A DNA stretch of 24,151 nucleotides, taken from IMG/VR virus record IMGVR_UViG_3300009701_000002, positions 1-24,151 of that record. One strand, written 5' to 3'. Below are positions 1 to 24,151 of the stretch, piece after piece. The notes beneath the pieces were generated by a model, which was not told where the DNA came from, searched no databases, and saw nothing but the letters and a program-made list of their open reading frames with translations. Position 1 is the stretch's first letter; every line of letters begins with the position of its first letter. The translations under genes and the position numbers were made by a program. This DNA is from a virus.

Positions 1-123
1 CTTTGTTGGTTTTCGGTTAAGTCGTAAGCATAGTAGAGTTCCTCACAAGACATTTCTTCGTCTTTCATGTCTTTCTCCTGATCTCTCGTTCGAATTCGTC
101 CATTTCATTAATAACTTCTAATA
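1..123. repeat. Terminal direct repeat, copy 1 (identical to 24029-24151). Contains the 5' end of the 150-aa paralog (its ATG is at 66-68 on the minus strand).
   Basis: Base-by-base reading shows 1-123 equals 24029-24151. The repeat lies inside coding sequence, at the junction of two paralog genes. Confidence 0.9.
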
Positions 124-523
124 ACAATTCTTTGTAATCTTTGGCGTAGGGGGCGTGGGCATAGGCCCAGAAGGAGCCATAACCGACGGCGCCACATACG
201 GCGCAAATTGCGGCGAAATATATGGCTTCCTCCGATGCCACCCTGATACTATTCGAATCAGAAAGGTAAGAACCGCGCGGCAAGTAAGAATCATAATGGT
301 GGCGGGCGAAGAAAAAGGCTTTTTGTAATTCTTCTTTTGTAGATTGGCCTTTAATATAGCGCTCTACGACTTCGAGAGTTTTAATTACAATTTTATTTAT
401 TTCTTCATCTTTTGATTTTTCTAGCCAATATCTTGATATTTTTACAAGCCATTTCCTATTCTGGTTTTCGCTCAGGTCGTAAGCATTGTATAGTTCTTTT
501 AAAGTCATTTTTTTGTGGTTCAT
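65..523 (-). CDS. Hypervariable-core paralog P1 (152 aa), unknown function
   Basis: Shares an N-terminal block (LKELYxAYDLSENQxRKWLVK...ERYIKGQxTKEEL) and a C-terminal block (YKELLLEVINEMDEFEREIRRK) with five other ORFs. ATG 521-523 overlaps the upstream stop as ATGA. GAGG Shine-Dalgarno (SD) upstream. Confidence 0.85.
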   Translation of the reverse strand: MNHKKMTLKELYNAYDLSENQNRKWLVKISRYWLEKSKDEEINKIVIKTLEVVERYIKGQSTKEELQKAFFFARHHYDSYLPRGSYLSDSNSIRVASEEAIYFAAICAVCGAVGYGSFWAYAHAPYAKDYKELLLEVINEMDEFEREIRRKT

Positions 524-1671
524 GGTTTGACCTCTATGTTAATGGAACTGCCCCAAGACACTGGGGGTTTTTGAGTGCCAACTATAGCCCATAGAACAGG
601 ATAATTGGGACGTTTAATTTCTTCATTATCATAGCAGTCCATATCACCAAAATAGATTAATCCGTCTATAGCAATTCTTTGCTTATTAAACCAATCAAAA
701 GCTGGCTGGTAAGCCGTACCGCCCCTTCCTTTAATACTATACTTTTTCTTAGGATCAAATACGTAGCTATTCTTAACTTCGGCGTCCGCTTCCACGACTG
801 TCACTGTGGCGTATTTAGCTATTTCCGCGATTTCTGACATAAATTGGGTTAAAGCCTCGTCTGATACGCTTCCAGATGTGTCTATAGCAACTCCTAATTT
901 CAACCTTTCGATTTTTATATCACCGGGGATTGAAATGCCATATCTCCTGTTGCGCTTTTTTCTAGAGCTTTCAATGAAATATTCGACTTGTCTAGCTACG
1001 AAGCGCTTTAATTCTGCTCTCCAATCACGCGACGAGGCGTTTAACTTGGATACTAACAGCTCGTCATCACTACTCATTTTTCCAGCGCTTCTTGTGTTTT
1101 GGGCGGCCTCGTTAACCGCGTTTCTAATCTTTTGCCGCAAAGCATCAGTACTTTCTTCGGAATCGTCCCACAAGGGATGGCCGTCGTAGTCAGACCAATC
1201 TTTTGCTTTTTTGGATTTCTTTAAATTTTCATGATACCATTCCATGGTTTCCCCGTCGGGTAAGTCATAGAGAGCGGGCATTACAGCGAGAGAAGGAATA
1301 TTTGGAATACCGGGGTTAATGGAAAGATCACAGGCGACATTTATGAAGCGGTGTTTCATATTGTCAATCACGGCATCAGCCAGGTCTCTTTTTTTAGAAG
1401 AATATACATCGGGGGCTACTTCCCTTGAACGCGGTATATGATCGTGTAATATATGCTGGCATTCGTGTTTAAGAACAGCTACTTGCTCGGCGGGGGTTAA
1501 TTTATCAAAAAACTCCAAATTTACAAATAATTCTATTCGGTCTTTAATTCTTACGCCCGCCGTGTCAATAGATTTCGTTATTTTACGGTCCATTTGCATG
1601 ATAAGTTCACCATAGAAACGTTCCGATTCAAAAAGTCTAAGAATAGCTTTTGTAAGTGAATCTGCGCTCAT
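520..1671 (-). CDS. VWA-domain protein with an N-terminal HExxH metallopeptidase-like domain (DUF2201-like architecture)
   Basis: HECQHILHDH (HExxH) in the N-terminal half. MIDAS-like motif GVAIDTSGSVS in the C-terminal half. AAGGAG SD. ATGA overlaps at both ends. Confidence 0.8.
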   Translation of the reverse strand: MSADSLTKAILRLFESERFYGELIMQMDRKITKSIDTAGVRIKDRIELFVNLEFFDKLTPAEQVAVLKHECQHILHDHIPRSREVAPDVYSSKKRDLADAVIDNMKHRFINVACDLSINPGIPNIPSLAVMPALYDLPDGETMEWYHENLKKSKKAKDWSDYDGHPLWDDSEESTDALRQKIRNAVNEAAQNTRSAGKMSSDDELLVSKLNASSRDWRAELKRFVARQVEYFIESSRKKRNRRYGISIPGDIKIERLKLGVAIDTSGSVSDEALTQFMSEIAEIAKYATVTVVEADAEVKNSYVFDPKKKYSIKGRGGTAYQPAFDWFNKQRIAIDGLIYFGDMDCYDNEEIKRPNYPVLWAIVGTQKPPVSWGSSINIEVKP

Positions 1672-2105
1672 GCATTTCTCCTTATTTCTCGTTCAAACTC
1701 ATCCATTTCGTTAATAACTTCTAATAACAATTCTCTATATGAATTGTAGAAACGATCGTAAAAAGAATATGGTTGTTCGGAATTGTAAACGATTTGATCA
1801 GTGTAAATGGCCACCCTGGAAAAGGCAGCTCTGGCTGCGTAAGCAAGAGTTCCTGCATGATCGTACGTCATTGACCAGTAGGTACCGTAAGCGGCGTGCA
1901 ATTCTTCTTCTGTGGCTTGCTTTTTAGTGTAACGCTCCGCCACGTCTAAAATTTTTTTTGCAATTTTATTTATTTCTTGATCGGTTGATTTATTCATCCA
2001 ATATTTAGCGATTTTTACAAGCCATTTCCTTTGTTGGTTTTCACTCAAGTCGTAAGCGTCGTAGAGTTCTTTTAAAGACATTTCTTCGTGTTTTTTGTGG
2101 CTCAC
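1668..2105 (-). CDS. Hypervariable-core paralog P2 (145 aa)
   Basis: Same conserved termini as P1. GTG start overlaps the MoxR stop (GTGA). An ATG at 2081 is an alternative start. Confidence 0.8.
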   Translation of the reverse strand: MSHKKHEEMSLKELYDAYDLSENQQRKWLVKIAKYWMNKSTDQEINKIAKKILDVAERYTKKQATEEELHAAYGTYWSMTYDHAGTLAYAARAAFSRVAIYTDQIVYNSEQPYSFYDRFYNSYRELLLEVINEMDEFEREIRRNA

Positions 2106-3202
2106 GACGCACCTTTTGCTTCCTTTGTCATTTTAATTAAAATGTCTCTGTACTTTGGTTTGCTGTAAAAATCTTTGAAAATAGAATGCTCTAATTTTAT
2201 GATTTTTTTGATAGTCATAACCATAATGTCGCGAGGAATTGTAGTGAAATACTCCATAAGAGCCGCTTCTTCGTCTTTAGTAAAAGGTTGTTTATCTGTT
2301 TCGCGCTGCACGATATAATCGCGTAAATTGTCACCGGTAATCCCTAAGAGGCTCGAAGCTATGTTTTCAGGGTTAGACCATGTCTTTACTTTATTTAACC
2401 CGCTGCCGTTAAGGACTTCTGCCCCAGTCAAAGGTTTGTCTACGTTTTTTAAATGGAGTTCGTAAGCGACACTTCGCTCCAGACCTATTATACCGTGCAT
2501 GAGCTGGCTTAAAATATTATTTGGAACTCCAAGTTTAAAAAGTCTGTTAAGACGCTCGTAAGACCTTCTATCGACTTTTACTTGAAGATCAAAATTACTA
2601 TGTTTGTCTTCAAGAAAACTGGGCTGTTCTTTCAAAAAGCTAAGGATTGTAGGCTCAAAACTATTGCCTTTGGCGTATTCCATAAACTCTTCAAAGCTAG
2701 GTTCGAGTTTTATGTGCACAAACCGGGACATAAGTGCTGTGTCATTGACGTCTGTTACAAAGTATTCGTCTGTTGGTGGGTTACCGGCAGCAATGATGTG
2801 GCAGTTTTTTGGCAGTTTAATAGTGTGAAAAGTCTTGTCTAACGCCAAAGAGAACATACCGTTTAAAACGTCGCGTCTCGCCCGGTTAAACTCGTCCAAA
2901 AAGATAATAGCGCCGCTATCGGGGTTTTGTTCGCAGTAACGGATTGCGTCGTTAAGCCATTTAGGAGTCGCGAAATTTGTGGATTTGCTGCCGTCGCCGT
3001 TATCAACAAACTCAGCTAACCCCAAAACATCCCCTAAATCGCTTTGAGTGCCTAAATATAGCGGGAAAAAGTGGTAACCTTTACTCTGGGCGTATTGTTT
3101 GACGATAGAGGACTTTCCGATACCGGCTCGGCCCCAAAGAAACGCCGTTGTTTGGGCTTCGAAAAGATACGGAAGAGCAGTAGTCAAATCCTTGATATTC
3201 AT
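2102..3202 (-). CDS. MoxR/AAA_5-type AAA+ ATPase
   Basis: Walker A GRAGIGKSS. Walker B IIFLDEFNRA. Sensor-1-like IIAAGNP. Lies one gene upstream of the VWA partner, with paralog P2 between them. AAGGAAAG SD. Confidence 0.85.
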   Translation of the reverse strand: MNIKDLTTALPYLFEAQTTAFLWGRAGIGKSSIVKQYAQSKGYHFFPLYLGTQSDLGDVLGLAEFVDNGDGSKSTNFATPKWLNDAIRYCEQNPDSGAIIFLDEFNRARRDVLNGMFSLALDKTFHTIKLPKNCHIIAAGNPPTDEYFVTDVNDTALMSRFVHIKLEPSFEEFMEYAKGNSFEPTILSFLKEQPSFLEDKHSNFDLQVKVDRRSYERLNRLFKLGVPNNILSQLMHGIIGLERSVAYELHLKNVDKPLTGAEVLNGSGLNKVKTWSNPENIASSLLGITGDNLRDYIVQRETDKQPFTKDEEAALMEYFTTIPRDIMVMTIKKIIKLEHSIFKDFYSKPKYRDILIKMTKEAKGAS

Positions 3203-3245
3203 AAACTTTCCTTTGGCCTATGGCCATAATTGTTTTAGTTTAATA

Positions 3246-3506
3246 TTAGCACACGGGGGTGTTTTTGTATAGCTTTTCGAGGTTGGCTTTGATTTCCTCA
3301 TCGGTTAATTTTGGAGGCCGAGGAGCAAGGTATCTAGCCATGGCTTCTTCCTGAGCTTTTCTAGCGGCGCGGGTTTTGGCGTTAATTGAGATTTTTTCGC
3401 CGCCCCAAAGAATTAAAATGGCAAGCAAACTATCTAAAAAACTAAAGAGACAAAGCAGGCCAAAAATTGTCATTCCGAGATAAGCTAGTCCGTTAATAAA
3501 TCCCAT
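3246..3506 (-). CDS. Small membrane protein (86 aa); holin-like is only a guess
   Basis: Hydrophobic N-terminus (GFINGLAYLGMTIFGLLCLFSFLDSLLAILILWGG) followed by a charged tail. Strong AAGGAGG SD. Confidence 0.7.
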   Translation of the reverse strand: MGFINGLAYLGMTIFGLLCLFSFLDSLLAILILWGGEKISINAKTRAARKAQEEAMARYLAPRPPKLTDEEIKANLEKLYKNTPVC

Positions 3507-3616
3507 AAAATCCTCCTTAAAAGCAAGCTAGGTTTTACATCTTGCGACAACCGGTTTGATGCCCGAGGGCTTGACGCGGTTAACCTTGCTTACATAATAC
3601 TTATCGGACGACATCG

Positions 3617-3850
3617 TCAGGACTTTAGGCTATTGTTGAATTTATTTTTAAAAAATTCTACTACCTTGTCTTCAACTGACTTTACATGACGCTCAAATCC
3701 TTCCAGATCGTTTATGGCTTTTGTCTCAATCTGGTCCAACAAAAGCCTTACACTGTTACGTAAATTCCCGACTATATGGATTTCTGCGCCGCTCGTACAG
3801 TTACGAAGCGTCTCTTCTAAAGTCTCTAGCCTCTGTTTGTAGTCTATCAT
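3617..3850 (-). CDS. Hypothetical helical protein (77 aa)
   Basis: ATGA overlap with the upstream gene. No recognisable motif. Confidence 0.6.
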   Translation of the reverse strand: MIDYKQRLETLEETLRNCTSGAEIHIVGNLRNSVRLLLDQIETKAINDLEGFERHVKSVEDKVVEFFKNKFNNSLKS

Positions 3851-4425
3851 ACGCTGCTCGTACGTTTAGAAAGGCCGCTAACAAGCTCCATGAACTCTTG
3901 CATCGTCATTTTACCGGGTAAAGGGAACATGACGTTCTCGTTATCCACTATTAAAGTCAGGCCGACTTCGTAGTACCTAGCCTTTTTAGTTTCCTGTGGC
4001 ACGACTTTAGTAACTTCAGGTTGTACGGCAGCCGGTATTGGTAATTTGGTGAACTTAGGTTTGACTTCTTGCTTTTTTAGTGACTTATTTTGGGCCACAG
4101 CTGACATTCCTATACTTTGCAAAGTCATTGTTATACCGCCAAGCGAACGAAGCTTCCCACGAGGACTGAATTCAAGCTTACCGATACCGGATTGGCTCAT
4201 GAATTTCAGCTCAGCGCCTAACTGCTCTCGGCTAAACTCAAAGCCTTCTTTAGCCAGTGCTGTCTTTAAATTATGAATAGAGATTCTTTTCGTTGAACGT
4301 TCCCGCAAGGCAAAGACATGGCACATAGCGTTAAACGTCTCAGAAGACTTGGCGCGGTCTTGGAGTCTATTTATTAGAGTCGTGTTACCGTTGGCTGCTG
4401 CGGAAGTTACCATTGAAATTTCCAT
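3847..4425 (-). CDS. Hypothetical protein (192 aa)
   Basis: The ORF-track start at 4446 is a TTG. The ATG at 4423-4425 is preceded by AAAGGA plus a 6-nt spacer, so I moved the start to 4425. Confidence 0.7.
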   Translation of the reverse strand: MEISMVTSAAANGNTTLINRLQDRAKSSETFNAMCHVFALRERSTKRISIHNLKTALAKEGFEFSREQLGAELKFMSQSGIGKLEFSPRGKLRSLGGITMTLQSIGMSAVAQNKSLKKQEVKPKFTKLPIPAAVQPEVTKVVPQETKKARYYEVGLTLIVDNENVMFPLPGKMTMQEFMELVSGLSKRTSSV

Positions 4426-4593
4426 TTTACATCCTTTGTTTACCAACCGTGATTGGTTGATGATTATGGTTTATGCGAAGGATGTGCCACAGTCAATGCG
4501 GTTATAATTGATCTGGGCTTAAGCCTGTGTCAAAAGTCTTGTCGGAGGCCGTAAAATGTGAGGATTGTGGAAAGCCTTTGTGACGTGCAGCTG

Positions 4594-4620
4594 AATAAAA
4601 AAGCCCCCGTGAGGGGGCGC
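4594..4620 (-). terminator. Rho-independent terminator (minus strand)
   Basis: Minus-strand RNA reads GCCCCC-ucac-GGGGGC followed by UUUUUUAUU. It sits immediately 3' of pentamer array A. Confidence 0.85.
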
Positions 4621-4715
4621 AAAACAAAACATAACTTAACTAAACTCAACGTAACGCAACTCAACGCAACTAAACGTAACTTAACTTAACGCAACGAAAC
4701 GCAACTTAACTGAAC
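4621..4715 (-). repeat. Pentamer array A: 19 contiguous NNAAC units on plus (GUUNN in the minus-sense RNA)
   Basis: Read directly: aaaac aaaac ataac ttaac taaac tcaac gtaac gcaac tcaac gcaac taaac gtaac ttaac ttaac gcaac gaaac gcaac ttaac tgaac. Phase is never broken. Lies between the stop at 4747 and the terminator. Confidence 0.95.
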
Positions 4716-4746
4716 GCAAAAATTTTATTCAATATAAATTAAGTAA

Positions 4747-5283
4747 CTATTTTTCTCCGCGAAGCAAAGCTAGGGCTTTTAACTCATAATTAGCTTGGGC
4801 AATATAAGTCGCGTCTTTTACAGTTAACTTTTTTGAACCGTAAGCGTGATTTAAAAGTTGTGCGATGGCGCTGGTAGCCAATATTTTCGAGGTCACGATT
4901 TGTTTAAGATCAGCGCTGACTTGATCAAGGTCAATGTGTTCTAAACGCTTCCCAGTTTTTTCAACAGCGCTTATTAATTTAGTCTTTGCCTCGTCGTTAG
5001 CTGCATTATATTGGTTCTCGCCGGCGATTAGCTCGTACCCTTCGCCGTGTAAACGTTTTAAGCGCTTTTTGAGTTGACCGCCGATTTGCGGCTCCATGGA
5101 GCGGATACAGCTTTTAATTTCTGAAAGCTCAAGAGTTAAATTATTCTGTGTGCACATATCTTGTAGCGCGGAGTCTGTTAACTGTACCCCAGCTTGGGCG
5201 CTTGTTAAGTGTGACATAAGAATTTTTTTAAATTCTTCTCGTTTTACTTTTTTAGTAGCGTTTTTATCTGTACTTGTTAACAT
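4747..5283 (-). CDS. Hypothetical helical protein (178 aa)
   Basis: ATG preceded by a perfect AGGAGG. Flanked by pentamer arrays B (5') and A (3'). Confidence 0.8.
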   Translation of the reverse strand: MLTSTDKNATKKVKREEFKKILMSHLTSAQAGVQLTDSALQDMCTQNNLTLELSEIKSCIRSMEPQIGGQLKKRLKRLHGEGYELIAGENQYNAANDEAKTKLISAVEKTGKRLEHIDLDQVSADLKQIVTSKILATSAIAQLLNHAYGSKKLTVKDATYIAQANYELKALALLRGEK

Positions 5284-5285
5284 CT

Positions 5286-5320
5286 AATCCTCCTAGGATT
5301 GGTTAAAAAAATAGCGTAGC
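5286..5320 (-). promoter_or_regulatory. 5' leader: SD-sequestering hairpin (AAUCCU-AGG-AGGAUU) plus a conserved 17-mer box
   Basis: Inverted repeat at 5286-5300 includes the SD. The 17-mer taaaaaaatagcgtagc (5304-5320) is identical to 5941-5957. Confidence 0.6.
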
Positions 5321-5370
5321 AAAACACAACGCAACATAACTTAACTAAACAAAACACAACTAAACTTAAC
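5321..5370 (-). repeat. Pentamer array B: 10 contiguous NNAAC units
   Basis: aaaac acaac gcaac ataac ttaac taaac aaaac acaac taaac ttaac, bracketed by atagc/gtagc pentamers. Confidence 0.95.
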
Positions 5371-5386
5371 ATAGCTGAGAAAAAAA

Positions 5387-5920
5387 TCATTTTACAGTAA
5401 ATCTGCCGTATTCTGGACGATAATCGCCTACGCCTATAAATTTACCACCAACGTCTAAAAGTTCAAGTAAAATCTCGGGCGGAAACTGCTTTTCATCTGC
5501 AATTATGACATTAAGCGTTCCCGACCAGTCTTCAAGCTTAGGCCAAATCCTTAATATTTTTTTAGTGCCGTTCATACCGACAAAAGCCTGATGTTTATTT
5601 ACCTCGCTCACCGGTTGCTTTAAAAGCATGGAATCCGTAATAAATAGCACCGAATCAACTAAATCGGCGTATCCGCTTCGCTTGCCGGGTTGTTTAATAC
5701 CTGAGAATTTTGCGGCAGCTTTTAATGTTCCTTTCCAGACTCGGCTCGGAATGGCGAGCTTACCTCCTTCTAAATACATACGGGCGTTAAACATTTCGTC
5801 TCCCGCTTCCCAATCCTCGTGCTTTGTGCGCGCCGGCTTAGTTTTGGCCGTAAGCATCGAATTGATGTTATTCATTAACAGAGGCGTTACTGACTTTATC
5901 CCGTAGCTGACCGTTTTCAT
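5387..5920 (-). CDS. Hypothetical protein (177 aa) with RAMP-like motifs (tentative)
   Basis: Start moved to the ATG at 5918-5920 (MKTVSYG...), preceded by AGGAGG. The ORF-track N-terminal extension runs through the SD. The motifs AIPSRVWKGTLKAAAK and the C-terminal GVGDYRPEYGRF resemble the RAMP KG-x-LR motif and glycine-rich loop. Confidence 0.75.
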   Translation of the reverse strand: MKTVSYGIKSVTPLLMNNINSMLTAKTKPARTKHEDWEAGDEMFNARMYLEGGKLAIPSRVWKGTLKAAAKFSGIKQPGKRSGYADLVDSVLFITDSMLLKQPVSEVNKHQAFVGMNGTKKILRIWPKLEDWSGTLNVIIADEKQFPPEILLELLDVGGKFIGVGDYRPEYGRFTVK

Positions 5921-5957
5921 ATACCCTCCTAGGTATTTCTTAAAAAAATAGCGTAGC
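5921..5957 (-). promoter_or_regulatory. 5' leader: SD-sequestering hairpin (AUACCU-AGGA-GGGUAU) plus a conserved 17-mer box
   Basis: Same layout as 5286-5320 with compensatory stem changes. The 17-mer is identical. Confidence 0.6.
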
Positions 5958-5997
5958 AAAACATAACAAAACTGAACAGAACTAAACTCAACTTAAC
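5958..5997 (-). repeat. Pentamer array C: 8 contiguous NNAAC units
   Basis: aaaac ataac aaaac tgaac agaac taaac tcaac ttaac. Confidence 0.95.
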
Positions 5998-6026
5998 ACA
6001 TTACTAAGTTACTTATCGGAAGGTTG

Positions 6027-6167
6027 CTAGGAAACTTTAACTTTTTTAGTAGAAATATTTTTATTGTCTAAATCTGGGAATTTCTCTAAAGACCTACGAC
6101 GGCAGTTGCAATCTGGTAGTTTTGAATTGCACCGTGGGTAGATGCAGGAGTTTTTATTAGAGTTCAT
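6027..6167 (-). CDS. Small Cys-rich ORF (46 aa; MNSNKNSCIYPRCNSKLPDCNCRRRS...), not in the ORF track
   Basis: Hand translation. ATG overlaps the stop of P3 as ATGA. Four Cys in CxxxxC...CxC spacing. Confidence 0.45.
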   Translation of the reverse strand: MNSNKNSCIYPRCNSKLPDCNCRRRSLEKFPDLDNKNISTKKVKVS

Positions 6168-6583
6168 ATTTTTCTCCTTATTGTACGTTCAAACTCATCC
6201 ATTTCGTTAATCACTTCTAATAACAATTCTTTATAATCACTGGCACAGTAGGAATGATTCGTACGGCAATAACAGGAAACGGCGAAAGCAAGGTCACTGT
6301 TGTCAAGCGTGGCACATTCCGAAAGGCGGGAGGCGCCAGCGATGTTCAAGTCGTAGGAGCTGGAGGCCTCATGGTAAACTAATAGTAATTCTTCTTTTGC
6401 GGCTTCGCCTCTGATGTATTTCTCTACGATTTCTAGATTTTTATTTATAATTTTATTTATTTGTTCATCTTTTGATTGTTTTAGCCAATGTCTTGTTGTT
6501 TTTACAAGAAATTTCCTTTGTTGTTTTTCGGTTAGGTCGTAAGCCTCATGGAGTTCTTTTAAAGACATGTCTTGGTCTTTCAT
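6164..6583 (-). CDS. Hypervariable-core paralog P3 (139 aa)
   Basis: Conserved termini. ATGA overlap with P4. AAGGAGAAAG SD embedded in the last codons of P4. Confidence 0.85.
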   Translation of the reverse strand: MKDQDMSLKELHEAYDLTEKQQRKFLVKTTRHWLKQSKDEQINKIINKNLEIVEKYIRGEAAKEELLLVYHEASSSYDLNIAGASRLSECATLDNSDLAFAVSCYCRTNHSYCASDYKELLLEVINEMDEFERTIRRKI

Positions 6584-7008
6584 ATCTTTCTCCTTATCTC
6601 TCGTTCAAATTCATCCATTTCGTTAATAACTTCTAATAAGAATTTTTTCGACTCGAATTGAACCCAACTGTTTGCTTTTACTATGAAACGCCAATTAGCT
6701 TCTGGAGAAAGAATTATCTCTTTTGCGGCGACGGCAAAAGCTACGCAAACGAATTCATTGCCGCGGTATCGAATGCCCTTGGCCAAGTTTCGTGCTTCTT
6801 CTAGTTCTTTTTTTGTGGATTGGCCTTTAATGTAGCGTTCTACGACTTCTAAACCTTTTGTTAAGATTTCGAGGGATTTTTTGTCTTTTACGTTTTCTAG
6901 TTCACCTTTTGCTACTTTGACAAGAAATTTTCTTAACTGGTTTTCGCTCAGGTCGTAAGCAGTGTAGAGTTCGTCTGAAGACATGTCTTGGTCTTTTTTG
7001 TTGTTCAT
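6580..7008 (-). CDS. Hypervariable-core paralog P4 (142 aa)
   Basis: Start moved to the ATG at 7006-7008 (MNNKKDQDMSS...). This matches the other paralog N-termini, and the longer ORF-track version runs into the terminator hairpin. Confidence 0.75.
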   Translation of the reverse strand: MNNKKDQDMSSDELYTAYDLSENQLRKFLVKVAKGELENVKDKKSLEILTKGLEVVERYIKGQSTKKELEEARNLAKGIRYRGNEFVCVAFAVAAKEIILSPEANWRFIVKANSWVQFESKKFLLEVINEMDEFEREIRRKI

Positions 7009-7042
7009 ATAATAATACATTACTACAGAATTATGATTATTC

Positions 7043-7075
7043 AAAATAAAAAAGCCAGGATTTTTAGTCCTGGCT
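7043..7075 (-). terminator. Rho-independent terminator after the capsid gene
   Basis: Minus-strand RNA reads AGCCAGGA-cuaaaaa-UCCUGGCU followed by UUUUUAUUUU. Confidence 0.85.
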
Positions 7076-7100
7076 CAAAATAGCTAAATTAAGCTATTAA

Positions 7101-8296
7101 TTAAGCTGATAATTGAACAACGCAGTTCCATCCCGGGGCACTACAGATGAGGTTCCCGTAATAGCCGATGCGAATCTCAAGGGCGTCGGCGTTACCAACA
7201 CGCAGTCCTTCGAGACCTTCCATTCCATACGTCAGGATATGCGGTACTTTGCCCAAGGAGCGAAGTTTCCACGTATTCATAGTAAGGAGGTACGCAGTCT
7301 GGGGAGGGCAGCTACGATCAGCCAACACGGTCACGCGACCATATGCGGACTGGAACGTAATACCTTCGAATGCGACTTCAACTTCATCGTGGTTGACTTG
7401 AACGTACTGGACTTTAGCGCCCAAAGCGTTTACAAGTGCGGCATACGATGCGAAGTCCATGATGCAAAGGTCTGGTTTTCCGCCTTCACGGTTCAAGAAT
7501 GCCAACGCGTTCGTCAGACCTTCCTCGATGGTGTAGGCCTGTGCGTTATAGCGACAGCCAGCCAAACGAGTAGGATCAGCAGAACGGTTAACGCCCCAGA
7601 ACGAGTCGTTAGCAGCAGGGCTAGTAACAGGCAACCAAGCAGCTAAGCCGCTCAAAGCGAGGTACGAGCCAGTGTTGCTAGCGCCAGTTGCCGGCAAGTC
7701 ACCAGAAACGGTGAGGTAAGCCAATCCAGTTCCGATAGCCCAGTTACCAGACAAAGTAGCAGCCGAAGCTGTTCCGTTGATTACACCGGTTGCACGGTTA
7801 ACTGCAGTGATCAGCACGGTGTCCGTCGAAGGAGCTCCACCATCAGAAGCCGAAGCAACTAACAGCATTCCAACTTCGAAAGCAACGATTTGCTGAGCGT
7901 TGGTCAAAGGAAGGGTTACACCACCGGGTGCAATACCGCCGACTTGGCTAGAAGCAGCCGAGGAAACGCCACGGGTAGCAGTACCAGAACCAAACAACTC
8001 AAAAGCGATGTTGTTAGTAATGTTACGGAAACCGCCGTCCATTTGAAGCTTAGCAGCGTCAACAAAAGCGCCTGCATTTGTCTTAGTCTGTTCCATCAAC
8101 AAGTTAGTGATAGTAACTAATTGATAGTCTTCGATTACGTACACGAAGTACGAAACAAGTGCTGTAGGCGTTTGCTGTGCTTGCGCGTTAGCAAACTGGT
8201 GAGAACGACCCTGGGGGGTTCCATACTCAAGGGGGACTGGTATGTATTTACCAGCGAACCCGTCTGGGCTTTCATTTTTTGGTACAAGGGCTAAGA
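7101..8296 (-). CDS. Major capsid protein, exon 2
   Basis: The frame stays open upstream of the ORF-track GTG (8144) to 8296 without any start codon (..FLALVPKNESPDGFAGKYIPVPLEYGTPQGRSHQFANAQAQQ..). Position after portal and scaffold, higher GC than neighbours, terminator downstream. Confidence 0.8.
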
Positions 8297-10378: not shown

Positions 10379-12268
10379 TTATGCTTGGGGGGTTGCGTTA
10401 GGGACTAAAGGACTCTGTGGCTGTGGTTGGGGTTGGGCCTGAGGCGGATTGGCCATAGGCATAGGTGGAGGCATGGCGGCTTGTTTAATGGCTTGTAATT
10501 GGTTAAAGAAATCACGGAGTTTTTCAGCCTTTGATTCTTCTAACTTGGCCTGGGTATATAGATTTATATACTGGGTCGTCAGCGTTGTGGCTAAGGCTAT
10601 GTCCATAAACGGATCTGGCGGGGTGTATTTACCAGACTCTACGATTTCGTCTAGGATTTGTAAGATACGTTCTTCTGAGGCGTTAGCAAGCTTTTCGACC
10701 TGCTCTAGATCTGGGTAGTCTAATAGCCTCCTGCCTTCTTGGAGGCTTACCATACCGCTTTGGACCATCTCGGTGACTTTTTGGAGACGGCCTGCTGGGT
10801 CTTTAGGTAGACTACTCTGGGTGAAACACTGGATTACGAAATCGTCGTGTATTAACGCCGCTTTAGGAAGGTCAATTTCTTTTGTACCGTTTTTATTAGG
10901 ATAGACGGTCTGATACTCTCCGTCGCGAATTGCGATATCTTTAGCCAAATCAATAACCTGATAGGCAAGATCGATAAAGCAGTTATCATACCGACGGGAC
11001 AGAGACGCGAAACGATCTGTTGAAATATCATCATAGGTCCTGATCGCTTCACCACTATCAAGACCTTGTGGCTTTTGAGAGGACGCCTGCAAAGCAGACA
11101 CTCCGGATTGCTGATAACCATATTGTATAAGCTTGTCTCGTTCTGCGTATAACTCGGGCGCATTACAAGGAGCAACCTCGTAACTCGGTTTAGTTCCACG
11201 ATACTTGACAATGACTCCGACCTCGTTATTATGAGCGGCAGCCATAACTTTTGAACCGTCCTCTTGAAATACTCGAGGAACACCAACAAGCTTAATAGCA
11301 CGAGATATAGTGAACAAAATACTGTTAAGCTCCATTTGCGTACCCATGAGTTGTTCAGCGACTCCCTGGGACCAAAAGCCAAGTAACCGAGGGCTATAAT
11401 GGAGAAAAGTAAAAGGAAAGCGATCTTTAGTATATTCCTCATCGATTAAGCTTCCTGCGCTACACGCCAACGTATGCCGTCCGTCATTGACATTTTTACC
11501 AGACGGTAAAGACCAGCCCTCTACAACCATTACTAAATCGGATACGGTTTTTGAGCTATCAGCGGAATTGTCTGGGAAAGCTTTTGCCGCCATAGCAATC
11601 TTGTCTTTAAATTTAGGGAAATTAGCAAATAAGACGTCCCTATCGATGAGTTTGATCCGGTATATACGTCTCGGCTCTCCGTACATGCTTTCGTTGGGGT
11701 CTACAAGTAATTCCGTTAATAGGACTCGCTCTAGGCCTACTTTTCTGTCAGGGGTCTCAAACGTATGGAATACGCCTGTCCCTGCCACTAAAGCGTCCCT
11801 AAGGACTATAGGAGCCAAGTCATAAGCCTTTGTCTGGTAAAACTCTCCCAAAAGGAAGTTGTTTAATTTCTTGGCTAGGTTTCTTTGCTTATAATCAGCG
11901 TTGTCAGTTAAAAACACCGGTTGGGGCCTGGATTGCGAGATACGCGATACCAGGGTATCTACTACGCTTTGGATGAGGTTAAACGTAGGCCGCTCCATTG
12001 GAAGGCCGTAATTCTGATCCATTTTGCTAATATTGTTACCGGCAAAGGAATAGAGGCTTTGGTTACCATAGAGTCTTGCGTAAACCGCGGTTTGTCTATA
12101 CCGGTAAGTCTGTGTTTCTTTTAAATATGCTGCTTTGGTAAGCATCTCCGCTGCGCATTTATCGCTGTCTTCGGCTTCCCACCATTTTGCTAGCGTAGTC
12201 GTTTCGTCGACGTTACGCGTCTTCATGGTGATTTTAGAGGGCGGTCCTTTGGCGTTGCTGACTTTCAT
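10379..12268 (-). CDS. Portal (head-tail connector) protein (629 aa)
   Basis: Size and position upstream of scaffold and capsid, downstream of the terminase region. P/Q-rich C-terminal tail. Assigned by synteny only; no diagnostic motif was readable by eye. Confidence 0.65.
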   Translation of the reverse strand: MKVSNAKGPPSKITMKTRNVDETTTLAKWWEAEDSDKCAAEMLTKAAYLKETQTYRYRQTAVYARLYGNQSLYSFAGNNISKMDQNYGLPMERPTFNLIQSVVDTLVSRISQSRPQPVFLTDNADYKQRNLAKKLNNFLLGEFYQTKAYDLAPIVLRDALVAGTGVFHTFETPDRKVGLERVLLTELLVDPNESMYGEPRRIYRIKLIDRDVLFANFPKFKDKIAMAAKAFPDNSADSSKTVSDLVMVVEGWSLPSGKNVNDGRHTLACSAGSLIDEEYTKDRFPFTFLHYSPRLLGFWSQGVAEQLMGTQMELNSILFTISRAIKLVGVPRVFQEDGSKVMAAAHNNEVGVIVKYRGTKPSYEVAPCNAPELYAERDKLIQYGYQQSGVSALQASSQKPQGLDSGEAIRTYDDISTDRFASLSRRYDNCFIDLAYQVIDLAKDIAIRDGEYQTVYPNKNGTKEIDLPKAALIHDDFVIQCFTQSSLPKDPAGRLQKVTEMVQSGMVSLQEGRRLLDYPDLEQVEKLANASEERILQILDEIVESGKYTPPDPFMDIALATTLTTQYINLYTQAKLEESKAEKLRDFFNQLQAIKQAAMPPPMPMANPPQAQPQPQPQSPLVPNATPQA

Positions 12269-22211: not shown

Positions 22212-22604
22212 CTATGCTCCTTTGGCTGTTAAGCCGGTTATTGCGTACGTAGAACCATTATCTAAATAAATTCTTTCGCCCATCCATTCTTGACATGGCT
22301 TATCGTCAATATAAGCTATCGGCTTAGACATTACAACCAATCTTTTGTGATCAATGTTAAGAGCTCGTAAAGCAGCTCTAGCCCATTTCCAGCCAGCTGC
22401 AGACCACACAAACACCGTGGCACCGCGCTCAAGTCGGTCTTTTAATATCTTTACGTGTGCCCGGTGAGGCTTTACATAAAGCTGAGCCTTAGTATAAGGG
22501 TCTGTAAACTGTACACATTCCTCTCCTTTGGCTATCTTGCCCCAAAGCAAAAGCGTAAAATCTACGTCTACCATCAAGACTTGCTCACTTTTTACTGTTA
22601 GCAT
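22212..22604 (-). CDS. HAD-superfamily hydrolase-like protein (130 aa)
   Basis: Motif I LMVDVDFTL (DxDxT). Start moved to the ATG at 22604, preceded by AAGGAA. Confidence 0.55.
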   Translation of the reverse strand: MLTVKSEQVLMVDVDFTLLLWGKIAKGEECVQFTDPYTKAQLYVKPHRAHVKILKDRLERGATVFVWSAAGWKWARAALRALNIDHKRLVVMSKPIAYIDDKPCQEWMGERIYLDNGSTYAITGLTAKGA

Positions 22605-23034
22605 TGCTATTTCCTTTGTAGCGGTCATCTAATTCTTTGTGAGTTTCTTCAAACTCCAAGACAAACAGCAAACAACAAGCACAGTGTGCCAAATGACTAA
22701 GGCCGGTTTCCGGGTCTTTATCTTCTCCACCTATATAGGCGTAGAGGTGTCTAGCAGCAGCTGCTAAGGGTCTGCTCCAGGCAAACCCACCTCTCCAGTT
22801 GTCACGACTATATTTCTTGCTTCCAAAAGTCATGACTTCGGCAATCTTAACGAGTCCGATGTGGCTTAACAAACTCATGTCAGGTTTACCTTGGTCGTGT
22901 TTTACTCCATTAGCCACCAAAGCTATTGGTGCTCCAGCTTTTTGTTGGCAACCAGGGCACGGCCCTAATACGTAATCATGTCCGTGTTCGTGGCAAGAAT
23001 AAAGTGACGTTAAATCTATTTTACTGGCTTGCAT
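22585..23034 (-). CDS. MazG-like / dATP-dGTP pyrophosphohydrolase-like protein (149 aa)
   Basis: KHDQGKPDMSLL...FGSKKYSRDNW...ARHLYAY..GEDKDPETGLSHLAHCACCLLF matches, from memory, the phage dNTP diphosphohydrolase N-terminal domain pattern. AAAGGAG SD. Confidence 0.6.
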   Translation of the reverse strand: MQASKIDLTSLYSCHEHGHDYVLGPCPGCQQKAGAPIALVANGVKHDQGKPDMSLLSHIGLVKIAEVMTFGSKKYSRDNWRGGFAWSRPLAAAARHLYAYIGGEDKDPETGLSHLAHCACCLLFVLEFEETHKELDDRYKGNSNANSKK

Positions 23035-23171
23035 TTCTGTTCTCCTTTGTACTTTGGACAGTATTCGCTATGCTTGTCTGATGAAATGCTAGCACAACCG
23101 CATTCGCATTGCAAATAATCCTTCCATAACTTTTGGTGTTTAGGAACCGGTAATCTAACTATTTCTTTCAT
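23016..23171 (-). CDS. Small Cys-rich ORF (51 aa; ..YLQCECGCASISSDKHSEYCPKYKGEQKC..), not in the ORF track
   Basis: Hand translation. ATGA overlap with the stop of P5. Contains the SD of the next gene. Confidence 0.45.
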   Translation of the reverse strand: MKEIVRLPVPKHQKLWKDYLQCECGCASISSDKHSEYCPKYKGEQKCKPVK

Positions 23172-23647
23172 GTCTTTCTCCTTATTATGCGTTCAAATTC
23201 ATCCATTTCGTTAATGATTTCTAATAACATTTTTTTGTAACCGGCGGCGCTGTAGGTGTAGGCATAGTCGGTCGGCCAAACGGCGGCATGGGCGAAAGCT
23301 AAAGCGGCATAGGCGGTGTCGGCGGCGTCAAAGGCGTAGGTGATGGCCCAAGCGGCGGCTTGGCCCAAGGCGGAGTTGAAAGCGAAGTTGGGGTCGGAAG
23401 CGACAACGACGGCAGCCCAAGCAACGCCGGCCGCTTTTTGTAAATCTTCTTTTGTAGCTTGGCCTTTTATATAACGTTCTACAATATCTAGAGTTTCAAT
23501 TACGACTTTATTTGTTTCTTCATCTTTTGATTTTTCTAGCCAATATCTTGATATTTTTACAAGCCATTTCCTTTGTTGTTTTTCGCTCAGGTCGTATGAT
23601 TCATAAAGTTCTTGGCAAGACATTTCTTCGTCTTTTTTGCGGTTCAC
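23168..23647 (-). CDS. Hypervariable-core paralog P5 (159 aa); Ala/Trp/Tyr-rich core
   Basis: Conserved termini. GTGA overlap with P6. Confidence 0.85.
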   Translation of the reverse strand: MNRKKDEEMSCQELYESYDLSEKQQRKWLVKISRYWLEKSKDEETNKVVIETLDIVERYIKGQATKEDLQKAAGVAWAAVVVASDPNFAFNSALGQAAAWAITYAFDAADTAYAALAFAHAAVWPTDYAYTYSAAGYKKMLLEIINEMDEFERIIRRKT

Positions 23648-24096
23648 ATCTTTCTCCTTATGATGCGTTCAAACTCATCCATTTCGTTAATCACTTCTAG
23701 TAACAACTCTTTGTAACCGTCGGCGGAGCGAGCGGCGACGGCGTAGACGGTGGCGGCGTAGGCGGCGGAGGCGGCGGAGGCGGCGGCGTAGGCGGTGGCG
23801 TCGTAGGCGGCGGTGGTGGAGGCGTAGGCGGCGTAGGCGGCGGAGCGAGCGGCGTAGGCGGCGTAGGCGGCGGCGTAGGCGGCGGCGGAGGCTTTTTTTA
23901 ATTCTTCTTCTGTAGCTTGGCCTTTAATATATTTTTCTACAACATCTAGAGTTTCAATTACGACTTTATTTAATTTTAGATTGATTGATTTTTTTAACCA
24001 ATGTCTTGATATTTTGATAAGCCATTTCCTTTGTTGGTTTTCGGTTAAGTCGTAAGCATAGTAGAGTTCCTCACAAGACATTTCTTCGTCTTTCAT
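23644..24096 (-). CDS. Hypervariable-core paralog P6 (150 aa); Ala/Tyr repeat core
   Basis: Conserved termini. The core is AAAYAAAYAAYAARSAAYAAYA.... Its ATG overlaps the stop of the duplicated P1 3' end (24093-24151). Confidence 0.85.
   Translation of the reverse strand: MKDEEMSCEELYYAYDLTENQQRKWLIKISRHWLKKSINLKLNKVVIETLDVVEKYIKGQATEEELKKASAAAYAAAYAAYAARSAAYAAYASTTAAYDATAYAAASAASAAYAATVYAVAARSADGYKELLLEVINEMDEFERIIRRKM
23716..23889 (-). repeat. GC-rich, triplet-periodic, imperfect tandem repeat encoding the Ala/Tyr core of P6
   Basis: The plus strand is built from reiterated gcggcgtaggcggc / ggcggagg units, inside otherwise AT-rich flanks. Confidence 0.8.
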
Positions 24097-24151
24097 GTCT
24101 TTCTCCTGATCTCTCGTTCGAATTCGTCCATTTCATTAATAACTTCTAATA
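24029..24151. repeat. Terminal direct repeat, copy 2 (identical to 1-123). Includes a duplicated partial 3' end of P1 (24093-24151, minus strand).
   Basis: Identical to 1-123 on direct reading. Confidence 0.9.

Follow-up and report, generated by a model that had tools for sequence, protein, structure and literature searches.

In the sections of Iyer et al. (2021, Viruses 13:63) that treat the pair, a MoxR ATPase encoded beside a protein with an N-terminal metallopeptidase domain and a vWA domain is described from group 2.2 jumbo phages and is proposed to act in virion assembly and peptidolytic processing, and the MoxR-vWA pair of the Acidianus two-tailed virus (ATV) is given there as needed for tail assembly. 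In MoxR-VWA systems generally, the VWA protein is an adaptor that brings a client to the ATPase (Kaur et al. 2020, eLife 9:e52696), and in the NTP-dependent ternary conflict systems (Kaur, Burroughs, Iyer and Aravind 2020) a MoxR-vWA core is combined with a fast-diversifying third component, and a peptidase domain can be fused to the vWA protein. DYW-type deaminase toxins, CdiA-CT toxins and polyimmunity loci are, for their part, the associations from which the immunity family Imm5 was defined (Zhang et al. 2012). Here we describe a viral DNA of 24,151 nt (IMG/VR virus record IMGVR_UViG_3300009701_000002, positions 1 to 24,151; this whole stretch is called the window below) in which a MoxR/metallopeptidase-VWA gene pair is interleaved with members of a set of small paralogous genes, predicted to be divergent relatives of Imm5. 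A VWA gene followed by an Imm5-like gene is a real, conserved gene pair in the phage clade concerned and in at least one other lineage, and is not universal for either family.

All substantial open reading frames (ORFs) of the window lie on the minus strand. Those of the ATPase/VWA pair and of the paralog arrays, given in their reading order within each group, are as follows.

2102-3202, minus strand: MoxR-type AAA+ ATPase, 366 aa, matching AAA_5 and phrog_1297, with Walker A GRAGIGKS and Walker B IIFLDEF
1668-2105, minus strand: paralog P2, 145 aa, GTG start, exactly at the MoxR/VWA junction, with a GTGA overlap upstream and an ATGA overlap downstream
520-1671, minus strand: HExxH metallopeptidase-VWA protein, 383 aa, a zincin-like domain fused to a VWA domain with an intact metal-ion-dependent adhesion site (MIDAS)
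65-523, minus strand: paralog P1, 152 aa, directly 3' of the VWA gene with an ATGA overlap, in the slot of the Imm5-like gene of relatives
6580-7008, minus strand: paralog P4, 142 aa from the ATG at 7008 (the P0006 form), the ORF being extendable to a TTG at 7044
6164-6583, minus strand: paralog P3, 139 aa, with an ATGA overlap at each side
6027-6167, minus strand: orf46, 46 aa with 4 Cys, closing the P4-P3 array with an ATGA overlap
23644-24096, minus strand: paralog P6, 150 aa, its core 56% Ala, 15% Tyr and 79% GC
23168-23647, minus strand: paralog P5, 159 aa, GTG start, with a GTGA overlap with P6
23016-23171, minus strand: Cys51, 51 aa with 6 Cys, closing the P6-P5 array with an ATGA overlap with P5

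The ATPase ORF matched Pfam AAA_5 (6.7e-10, 39.6 bits, cut-off 22) and phrog_1297 (2.4e-57), while the ORF at 520-1671 matched DUF2201_N (6.4e-15, 55.9 bits, cut-off 23.2), DUF2201 (5.3e-18, 65.8 bits, cut-off 26.4) and phrog_1314 (5.4e-59), which bears out the MoxR and VWA/HExxH assignments of the initial annotation, made from the sequence alone. In an alignment of 25 VWA proteins (that of the window and 24 homologues) the HExxH residues H69, E70 and H73 and the MIDAS residues D264, S266, S268, T319 and D343 are invariant, which makes it probable that the metallopeptidase and the MIDAS activities are both intact. PHROG labels the VWA protein 'HNH endonuclease'; this was rejected as a mislabel, the domains of the protein being DUF2201_N and DUF2201 (metallopeptidase and VWA). 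The phrog_1314 family is widely named in this way in phage records, for example in the N4-like OZ196215.1 (51655-52779), and domain content gives the name no support. In its AAA_5 and DUF2201_N/DUF2201 domains, its adjacent and usually overlapping genes and its intact Walker, HExxH and MIDAS motifs the pair is like that of Iyer et al. (2021), so far as the sections on that pair characterize it, and the same pair occurs in N4-like phages as phrog_1297/phrog_1314. It differs from the pair in those sections in its position, between the capsid and tail genes of a clade of ~55-kb phages, and in its linkage to a third, Imm5-like gene, which in the window even lies between the two and has no mention there. 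The initial annotation had recognized no described system of this kind; this fails for the pair itself, which those sections already report from phages, and holds, as far as we found, for the rest: full-text literature searches returned no description of the VWA-to-Imm5-like linkage, of an expansion to at least ten cassette-like copies of mosaic GC content, or of a copy inserted between MoxR and VWA.

With the ternary conflict systems the locus shares the MoxR-vWA core and a fast-diversifying third component. In those systems it is of the VMAP (vWA-MoxR associated protein), beta-propeller or FtsH type, which the component here is not, and no third gene of these types was found among the ORFs of the window or of L001 (Ga0116228_10001531, 19,286 nt; L-numbers denote contigs and loci fetched for comparison). 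Effector domains are also absent, the context is a phage late region, PADLOC and NCBIfam gave no match for MoxR, the VWA protein or the paralogs, and the MoxR ORF scored 21.1 bits against bpMoxR (cut-off 27). Membership in the VMAP/beta-propeller conflict systems was rejected on the bpMoxR score, the lack of such a third component and the lack of a PADLOC match, and the conflict-system role that the initial annotation had mentioned for MoxR-VWA pairs is not supported for that of the window. The FxSxx-COOH peptide systems (Kaur et al. 2020) likewise place a zincin metallopeptidase beside small proteins that diverge fast and are best conserved over their C-terminal 20-25 residues. In the window paralogs, by contrast, the N-terminus is conserved too, and AlphaFold (AF2) models pack the C-terminal helices on the N-terminal ones, so that the C-terminus looks like part of the fold and not like a peptide to be released. 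No relationship in sequence to those systems was seen, no search aimed at one having been made.

The six paralogs of the window share an N-terminal flank of ~70 aa and a C-terminal flank of ~24 aa (...YKELLLEVINEMDEFEREIRRK), between which lies a core of 48-65 residues that cannot be aligned. Their junctions form the chains MoxR-GTGA-P2-ATGA-VWA-ATGA-P1-ATGA-next paralog, P6-GTGA-P5-ATGA-Cys51 and P4-ATGA-P3-ATGA-orf46. The C-terminal codons of each paralog at the same time spell a Shine-Dalgarno (SD) sequence (AGGAGAAAG in P1, P4, P5 and P6, AGGAGAAAT in P2 and AGGAGAAAA in P3), which ends 5-6 nt ahead of the next start. Each paralog is a self-contained cassette, its start overlapping the preceding stop and its C-terminus encoding the next SD and stop/start overlap, and because the cassette carries its own coupling signals a copy can sit between MoxR and VWA with the coupling unbroken. 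The site occupied by P2 is one at which relatives show a direct MoxR/VWA overlap or at most a short spacer. Overlaps of 4 nt are common in phages; by ORF coordinates, nine of the ten in the window involve a paralog or the MoxR/VWA pair, since every repeat of the unit brings its own overlap and SD with it. The order from MoxR through P2 and VWA to the start of P1 recurs in an independent Logan assembly of a different run (L066). The interleaved, overlap-coupled order of MoxR, P2, VWA and P1 proposed in the initial annotation is thus confirmed by coordinates, junction sequences and L066, as is its placement of the SD within the last codons of the paralogs at ATGA or GTGA junctions, with variants in P2 and P3. 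Neither Cys51 nor orf46 has a family match, and these Cys-rich ORFs, which end two of the arrays, may be zinc-binding partners or merely small ORFs.

Profile comparisons point to the paralogs being divergent members of the Imm5/Imm5_like/DUF6931 superfamily of predicted toxin-immunity proteins. A six-paralog profile searched against 5.8 billion proteins recovered the copies on L001 (P0008, P0009 and P0007, also termed Q8, Q9 and Q7) and on a second contig, L002, and then distant small proteins of the same layout, with an N-terminal helix pair, ...VAERYanGeATeeEL, an AAYAAAYDAA-type run and an amphipathic C-terminal helix. One of these, P0011, was reached in that search at 8e-6 and scores 29.6 bits against Pfam Imm5_like (cut-off 25). 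Among the copies in relatives, the L009 gene after VWA (11145-11624) scores 46.3 bits against Imm5_like and 3.6e-4 against Imm5, the L017 copy 24 bits against Imm5_like, and the L019 and L020 copies 25-26 bits against DUF6931. When the window paralogs were compared by hhalign with an alignment of the relatives' copies that includes L009 11145-11624 and P0011, the match had 98.7% probability (E 2e-16) over 143 columns; as it spans both flanks, the similarity is more than shared alanine content. Full-length homology to bona fide Imm5_like members was thus recovered at profile level. Phage proteins are already among the members of Imm5_like, a curated Pfam family, and with a 22-sequence family profile 11,010 cluster representatives were recovered at E<=1e-3, 1,907 of them at E<=1e-10. 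A search of PDB sequences with the family profile gave nothing significant, neither P1 nor the Imm5-like protein of L009 had a tblastn match in GenBank phages, and an IMG/VR scan with the paralog alignment gave pattern matches and no relatives.

The AF2 models are all-helical (pLDDT 80.4 for P1 and 73.5 for P6), with the N-terminal helices and two C-terminal helices confidently predicted and packed together (pLDDT ~95). In the viral structure library BFVD the top fold match comes from an uncultured phage and is named 'Imm-5-like domain-containing protein' (probability 1.00, weak E 0.024, query-normalised TM-score 0.47), and the top PDB fold match is the non-toxin chain 7jtu_B (probability 0.99, weak E 0.25, TM-score 0.42); in 7JTU, SsdA, a DYW-like deaminase toxin, is in complex with SsdAI, the all-alpha protein that confers immunity to it. 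In being small and all-alpha, with an N-terminal helix pair, a '...VExYxxGxAT..EL' motif and an Ala-rich segment, the paralogs are like Imm5, Imm5_like and DUF6931 proteins, and the earlier suggestion of an immunity-like set fits this homology (the profile-profile match, the P0011 and L009 scores and the BFVD match). Like Imm5 polyimmunity loci, the paralogs form tandem arrays, whereas the known loci are bacterial and not in phage late regions. No recognized toxin domain occurs beside any array, the neighbours being MoxR, the VWA-metallopeptidase, the capsid gene, the Cys-rich ORFs and a MazZ-like gene, and the arrays thus show the features by which polyimmunity loci are recognized, namely tandem immunity-family genes with no associated toxin gene (Zhang et al. 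2012). They differ from the Imm5 family in that the window copies score below the Pfam cut-offs, have no identified deaminase, CdiA-CT or other toxin gene beside them, are phage-encoded and tied to a MoxR-VWA-protease pair, and carry a distinctive, conserved acidic C-terminal helix.

To survey the linkage, every ORF of 13 distinct VWA loci of the close clade, 28 distant-VWA loci and 14 clade loci around the DNA polymerase was scanned with the paralog profiles. At least one copy was present in 12 of the 13 close-clade VWA loci (21 copies in total, 1.37 per 10 kb), as against one copy in 215 kb of the replication-to-portal regions of the same clade (0.05 per 10 kb) and one copy in 310 kb of distant VWA loci. 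An Imm5-like gene lies directly 3' of VWA in nine of the 12 assessable relatives (L007, L009, L012, L013, L014, L015, L019, L020 and L022), the two genes mostly joined by 1-8-nt overlaps (mostly ATGA), but overlapping by 14 nt in L009 and separated by a few bases in L007. The position of MoxR varies: L007, L009, L013, L014, L019 and L022 have MoxR-VWA-Imm, L012 and L020 have VWA-Imm-MoxR, and L015 has Imm-MoxR-x-VWA-Imm; the MoxR orthologues adjoining VWA in relatives are 54-74% identical. Nearly all copies in the surveyed relatives fall within the late region, from capsid to tail genes. Outside the clade, L048, a 113-kb contig binned with an Ignavibacteriaceae metagenome-assembled genome (MAG), has a VWA protein of 37% identity and the order MoxR-VWA-Imm followed by two more copies. 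It is one of the only three distant MAG loci returned by a scan of GTDB genomes with the VWA alignment, a scan that gave no hint of the host, and no other distant VWA locus has an adjacent copy; in the N4-like Vibrio phage L051, where the ATPase-VWA pair lies in the replication module, no Imm5-like copy was detected by profile scan. The co-occurrence of paralog family and MoxR/VWA for which the initial annotation had proposed a survey was therefore found in related genomes. Within a few kb of MoxR/VWA/Imm5-like, a subtilisin-type, secreted-looking gene was seen in L009 (11701-12330, Peptidase_S8), L048 (1322-2059), L010 (6067-6720) and L016 (7697-8317), and the window is without one.

The MoxR, VWA-metallopeptidase and Imm5-like genes are co-oriented and coupled, in a late region between capsid and tail genes. 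From this gene order we tentatively read the Imm5-like proteins as variable binders that are clients or partners of the MoxR-VWA-protease, with the acidic C-terminal helix as a plausible MIDAS ligand, a reading to which we would give nearly even chances. The conserved N- and C-terminal helices would then form a scaffold, and the Ala/aromatic-rich, GC-rich and slippage-prone central segment a variable binding surface, the central hairpin setting the target. The paralogs would be immunity-like binders, a phage 'polyimmunity' set, and would at the same time serve the machine as clients or partners: the VWA MIDAS would engage them, with the invariant acidic helix NEMDEFE at their C-terminus as a possible contact, remodelling would fall to the ATPase, and processing, if any, to the HExxH domain. 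A more specific version, in which the machine matures, loads or deploys a diversified Imm5-like arsenal against host toxin-type effectors (deaminases, nucleases), possibly delivered with the virion, strikes us as rather unlikely; there, the variable Ala/aromatic hairpin would set the target and the acidic C-terminal helix would be the handle for VWA.

Several observations weigh against the client or partner reading. None of the six window paralogs matches Imm5_like (PF21805), Imm5 (PF14423) or DUF6931 at E<=0.1, and the L001 copies P0007-P0009 are likewise without a direct match to these families. The window paralogs have no direct match in Pfam, function-bearing PHROG families, NCBIfam or PADLOC, P6 matching only the function-unassigned phrog_18326. 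The E-values of the fold searches (0.024 and 0.25) are weak, the variable core is modelled with low confidence (pLDDT 28-52 in P6), and the known partners of Imm5 are deaminase and CdiA-CT toxins, not metallopeptidases. In L010, L016 and L017 other genes lie between VWA and the nearest copy. Most MoxR-VWA phages, N4-like ones included, have no Imm5-like gene, and the family is large and found in unrelated phage early regions without MoxR/VWA (L003, L004). The capsid-to-tail interval, finally, is a plastic accessory zone, and adjacency within it may be partly inherited and not selected.

Part of this evidence would suit autonomous accessory (moron-like) genes with an anti-toxin or anti-defence function, placed in a hotspot of accessory genes and local duplication and having no physical or functional connection with the ATPase-VWA pair. 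Between capsid and tail genes, relatives vary in a large complement of unrelated small ORFs, S8 peptidases and HNH genes, and copies also lie away from MoxR/VWA (P3/P4, P5/P6 and other positions in L010, L013 and L016); the distant members in early regions and the many MoxR-VWA phages without a copy count on the same side. We nevertheless consider such autonomy unlikely, if a serious contender. The slot directly 3' of VWA, with overlapping stop and start, is filled in nine of 12 relatives and in the distant L048, and it stays filled when MoxR switches side, whereas random placement among the ~25 genes of a locus would by our own estimate give about 1 in 10.

The adjacency could also mean that the Imm5-like protein is the cognate inhibitor of the HExxH-VWA metallopeptidase, with MoxR releasing or resetting the complex and the extra paralogs being diverged or spare inhibitors. 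The order in which a peptidase gene is overlapped by 1-8 nt (mostly 4 nt) at its end by a small gene of an immunity family is the one classically found in toxin-immunity pairs, and the invariant HExxH suggests that the peptidase is probably active. One conserved peptidase, however, needs no set of at least ten diversified copies, the many phage DUF2201 proteins examined do without such a neighbour, and Imm5 is not linked to metallopeptidase toxins (Zhang et al. 2012); an inhibitor role appears improbable to us.

The late position of the genes bears on a structural role as well, in which the paralogs would be virion-associated or assembly proteins (scaffold-like, decoration or packaged internal proteins) processed and loaded by the MoxR-VWA-protease, in analogy to the virion-assembly role proposed for this pair. 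The internal proteins of T4 are a precedent, being a hyperplastic late-gene set with a conserved targeting end. Nearly all of the relatives' copies belong to the late region, P4 and P3 come directly after the capsid gene, and the assembly and processing proposal and the ATV tail-assembly requirement, as given in the sections of Iyer et al. (2021) on the pair, would agree with it. Against this, the paralogs match no structural-protein family, the window lineage also has copies ahead of its replication genes, and the homology points to immunity and not to structural proteins, so that we assign a virion role a low probability.

The cores and flanks of the paralogs differ in composition and in constraint. 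The copies of relatives, like P6, P5, P0007 and P0008, have a low-complexity core of Ala, Tyr, Ser and Asn whose length varies; the P6 core is built from internal repeats of 9-15 nt, and such units in P5 and P6 were the only core repeats found; the cores of P1-P4 and P0009 are more complex, yet GC-enriched. With 26-36% GC in the flanks and 44-79% in the cores, the core stands apart in composition from the gene around it. At the nucleotide level the flanks share 65-94% identity, and their synonymous divergence is substantial: the proportions of synonymous and non-synonymous differences per site (pS and pN) are 0.47 and 0.11 in the C flank and 0.36 and 0.20 in the N flank, the N flanks of the P6/P0008/P0007 group (90-94% identical) being an exception. 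High synonymous with low non-synonymous divergence places the flanks under purifying selection, and the core either changes freely or is driven to change. The high synonymous divergence also led us to reject recent gene conversion as the only reason for flank conservation, except for P6/Q8/Q7.

With conserved flanks on either side of a variable core, the paralogs have an outward likeness to a variable region bounded by recombination or targeting sites, and dedicated diversification, by a diversity-generating retroelement (DGR) or cassette switching, might be thought to have made the cores in place of divergence and slippage. No reverse transcriptase was found among the profile-scanned ORFs of the window, the remaining ORFs having only been read, and the window yielded no template copy for any of the cores; on these grounds a DGR or cassette-switching origin was rejected. 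The substantial synonymous divergence of the flanks also means that the copies are old, and the same low-complexity core recurs family-wide in thousands of unrelated genomes, which leaves such an origin with hardly any likelihood. The Imm5-like gene after VWA in L007 (8501-8866) is apparently frameshifted in its low-complexity core, its translation running into an Arg/Leu/Cys-rich string and ending early; this may be a sequencing error in a GC-rich repeat or real, frameshift-prone evolution of the core.

The two ends of the window are identical over a short distance.

1-123 and 24029-24151, no strand assigned: 123-nt terminal repeat, identical copies

The initial annotation had continued the chain of P1 across this overlap into P6, P5 and Cys51 and had spoken of a small phage genome. 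The repeat takes in the final 55 nt of P1, runs through the ATGA junction and covers the first 68 nt of the paralog that follows; other paralog junctions share 63-86% identity with it. Nucleotides 1-123 of L001, which form the end of that contig, match it at 100%; past them lie the ATGA/GTGA-joined paralogs P0008, P0009 and P0007, a 91-aa ORF and tail-type genes, while no recognisable tail genes were found in the window by profile scans. The overlap thus lies inside a repeated junction and is common to the end of L001, and it is therefore no proof of circularity. Close relatives of the VWA protein (52-69% identity) are mostly on 55-60-kb contigs with the order portal - scaffold - capsid - ... 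- MoxR - VWA - Imm5-like - orf90 - ... - 356-aa protein - 98-aa protein - fibre - ~1000-aa protein. The first half of this order is on the window and the second half on L001, whose 356-aa protein is 88% identical to its L007 counterpart. L002 (2.3 kb, from the same metagenome) carries an HNH gene, a metallophosphatase gene, an SLT-like lysozyme gene and the start of another paralog; in relatives, the HNH, metallophosphatase and SLT-like genes are directly upstream of a MazZ-like/orf138/SSB-like/primase block, with no Imm5-like copies between the SLT-like gene and that block.

On the most economical reading of these sequences, the window would be a repeat-bounded fragment of a ~55-kb tailed-phage genome, with L001 following P1 and L002 preceding P6. 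The proposed order is HNH - phosphatase - SLT - paralog(s) - P6 - P5 - Cys51 - MazZ-like - replication - packaging - portal - capsid - P4 - P3 - orf46 - ... - MoxR - P2 - VWA - P1 - P0008 - P0009 - P0007 - orf91 - tail genes. The P1-to-P6 join is most likely an assembly-graph loop through the repeat, and the overlap of 123 would be the largest k-mer, as expected from a de Bruijn assembler. A complete, circular 24-kb genome was rejected, given an overlap that is not unique to the ends, a window without tail genes and the synteny with relatives; neither the continuation of the chain across the ends nor the small genome size can be upheld. The genome would carry at least ten paralogs in three arrays: around MoxR/VWA (P2, P1 and the three L001 copies), after the capsid gene (P4-P3) and before the replication genes (P6-P5 and the upstream copy). 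Exact-protein look-ups of P0007, P0008, P0009, P1 and P5 returned no record. Near-identical junctions of repeated cassettes can in this way yield a false 'circular complete genome' in metagenomic assembly.

Further features of the window lie outside the paralog cassettes.

22585-23034, minus strand: MazZ-like dATP/dGTP diphosphohydrolase gene (PF18909 1.7e-33, phrog_801 2.6e-39), heading the replication module
7076-7052, minus strand: strong terminator-like hairpin with a 9-bp stem and a T run, directly after the major capsid gene and before P4

The MazZ-like gene is overlapped by the Cys51 ORF by 19 nt. The MazZ enzyme family is linked to phages with modified bases (2-aminoadenine); no PurZ/DatZ-like gene was noticed among the window ORFs, where no search aimed at PurZ/DatZ was made. 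As the hairpin stands between the capsid gene and P4, P4-P3-orf46 would be expressed by read-through or from a signal of their own. Pentamer-periodic (GTTNN)n intergenic tracts of ~11-19 units occur on the minus strand at 4623-4720, 5318-5375 and 5955-5997, with 23 matches to the pattern against 0 expected in shuffles. Two of them lead into TTTTGCTACGCTATTTTTTTAA, then AGGAGG and the ATG that starts the following gene (5283 and 5920), and behind the third stands a GC hairpin terminator (4618-4603). Of 66 loci, only L066, from the same phage, shows the pattern, and the tracts may be promoter-associated or a protein-binding array. A megablast of window positions 1-8200 against GenBank phages gave no match, and tRNA and Rfam scans of the window returned nothing.

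The MoxR-VWA-metallopeptidase pair is widespread in phages, occurring in N4-like phages, jumbo phages and the clade studied here. To our knowledge no client of the phage pair has been reported, and the conserved, coupled third gene is the first concrete candidate for a client or partner. For the Imm5_like/DUF6931 superfamily, with more than 11,000 sequence clusters, no experimentally shown phage role was found in the literature. The linkage gives this large immunity-like family a phage context, from whose gene order the mechanism is inferred, and the expansion to at least ten copies in one phage suggests an arms-race function.

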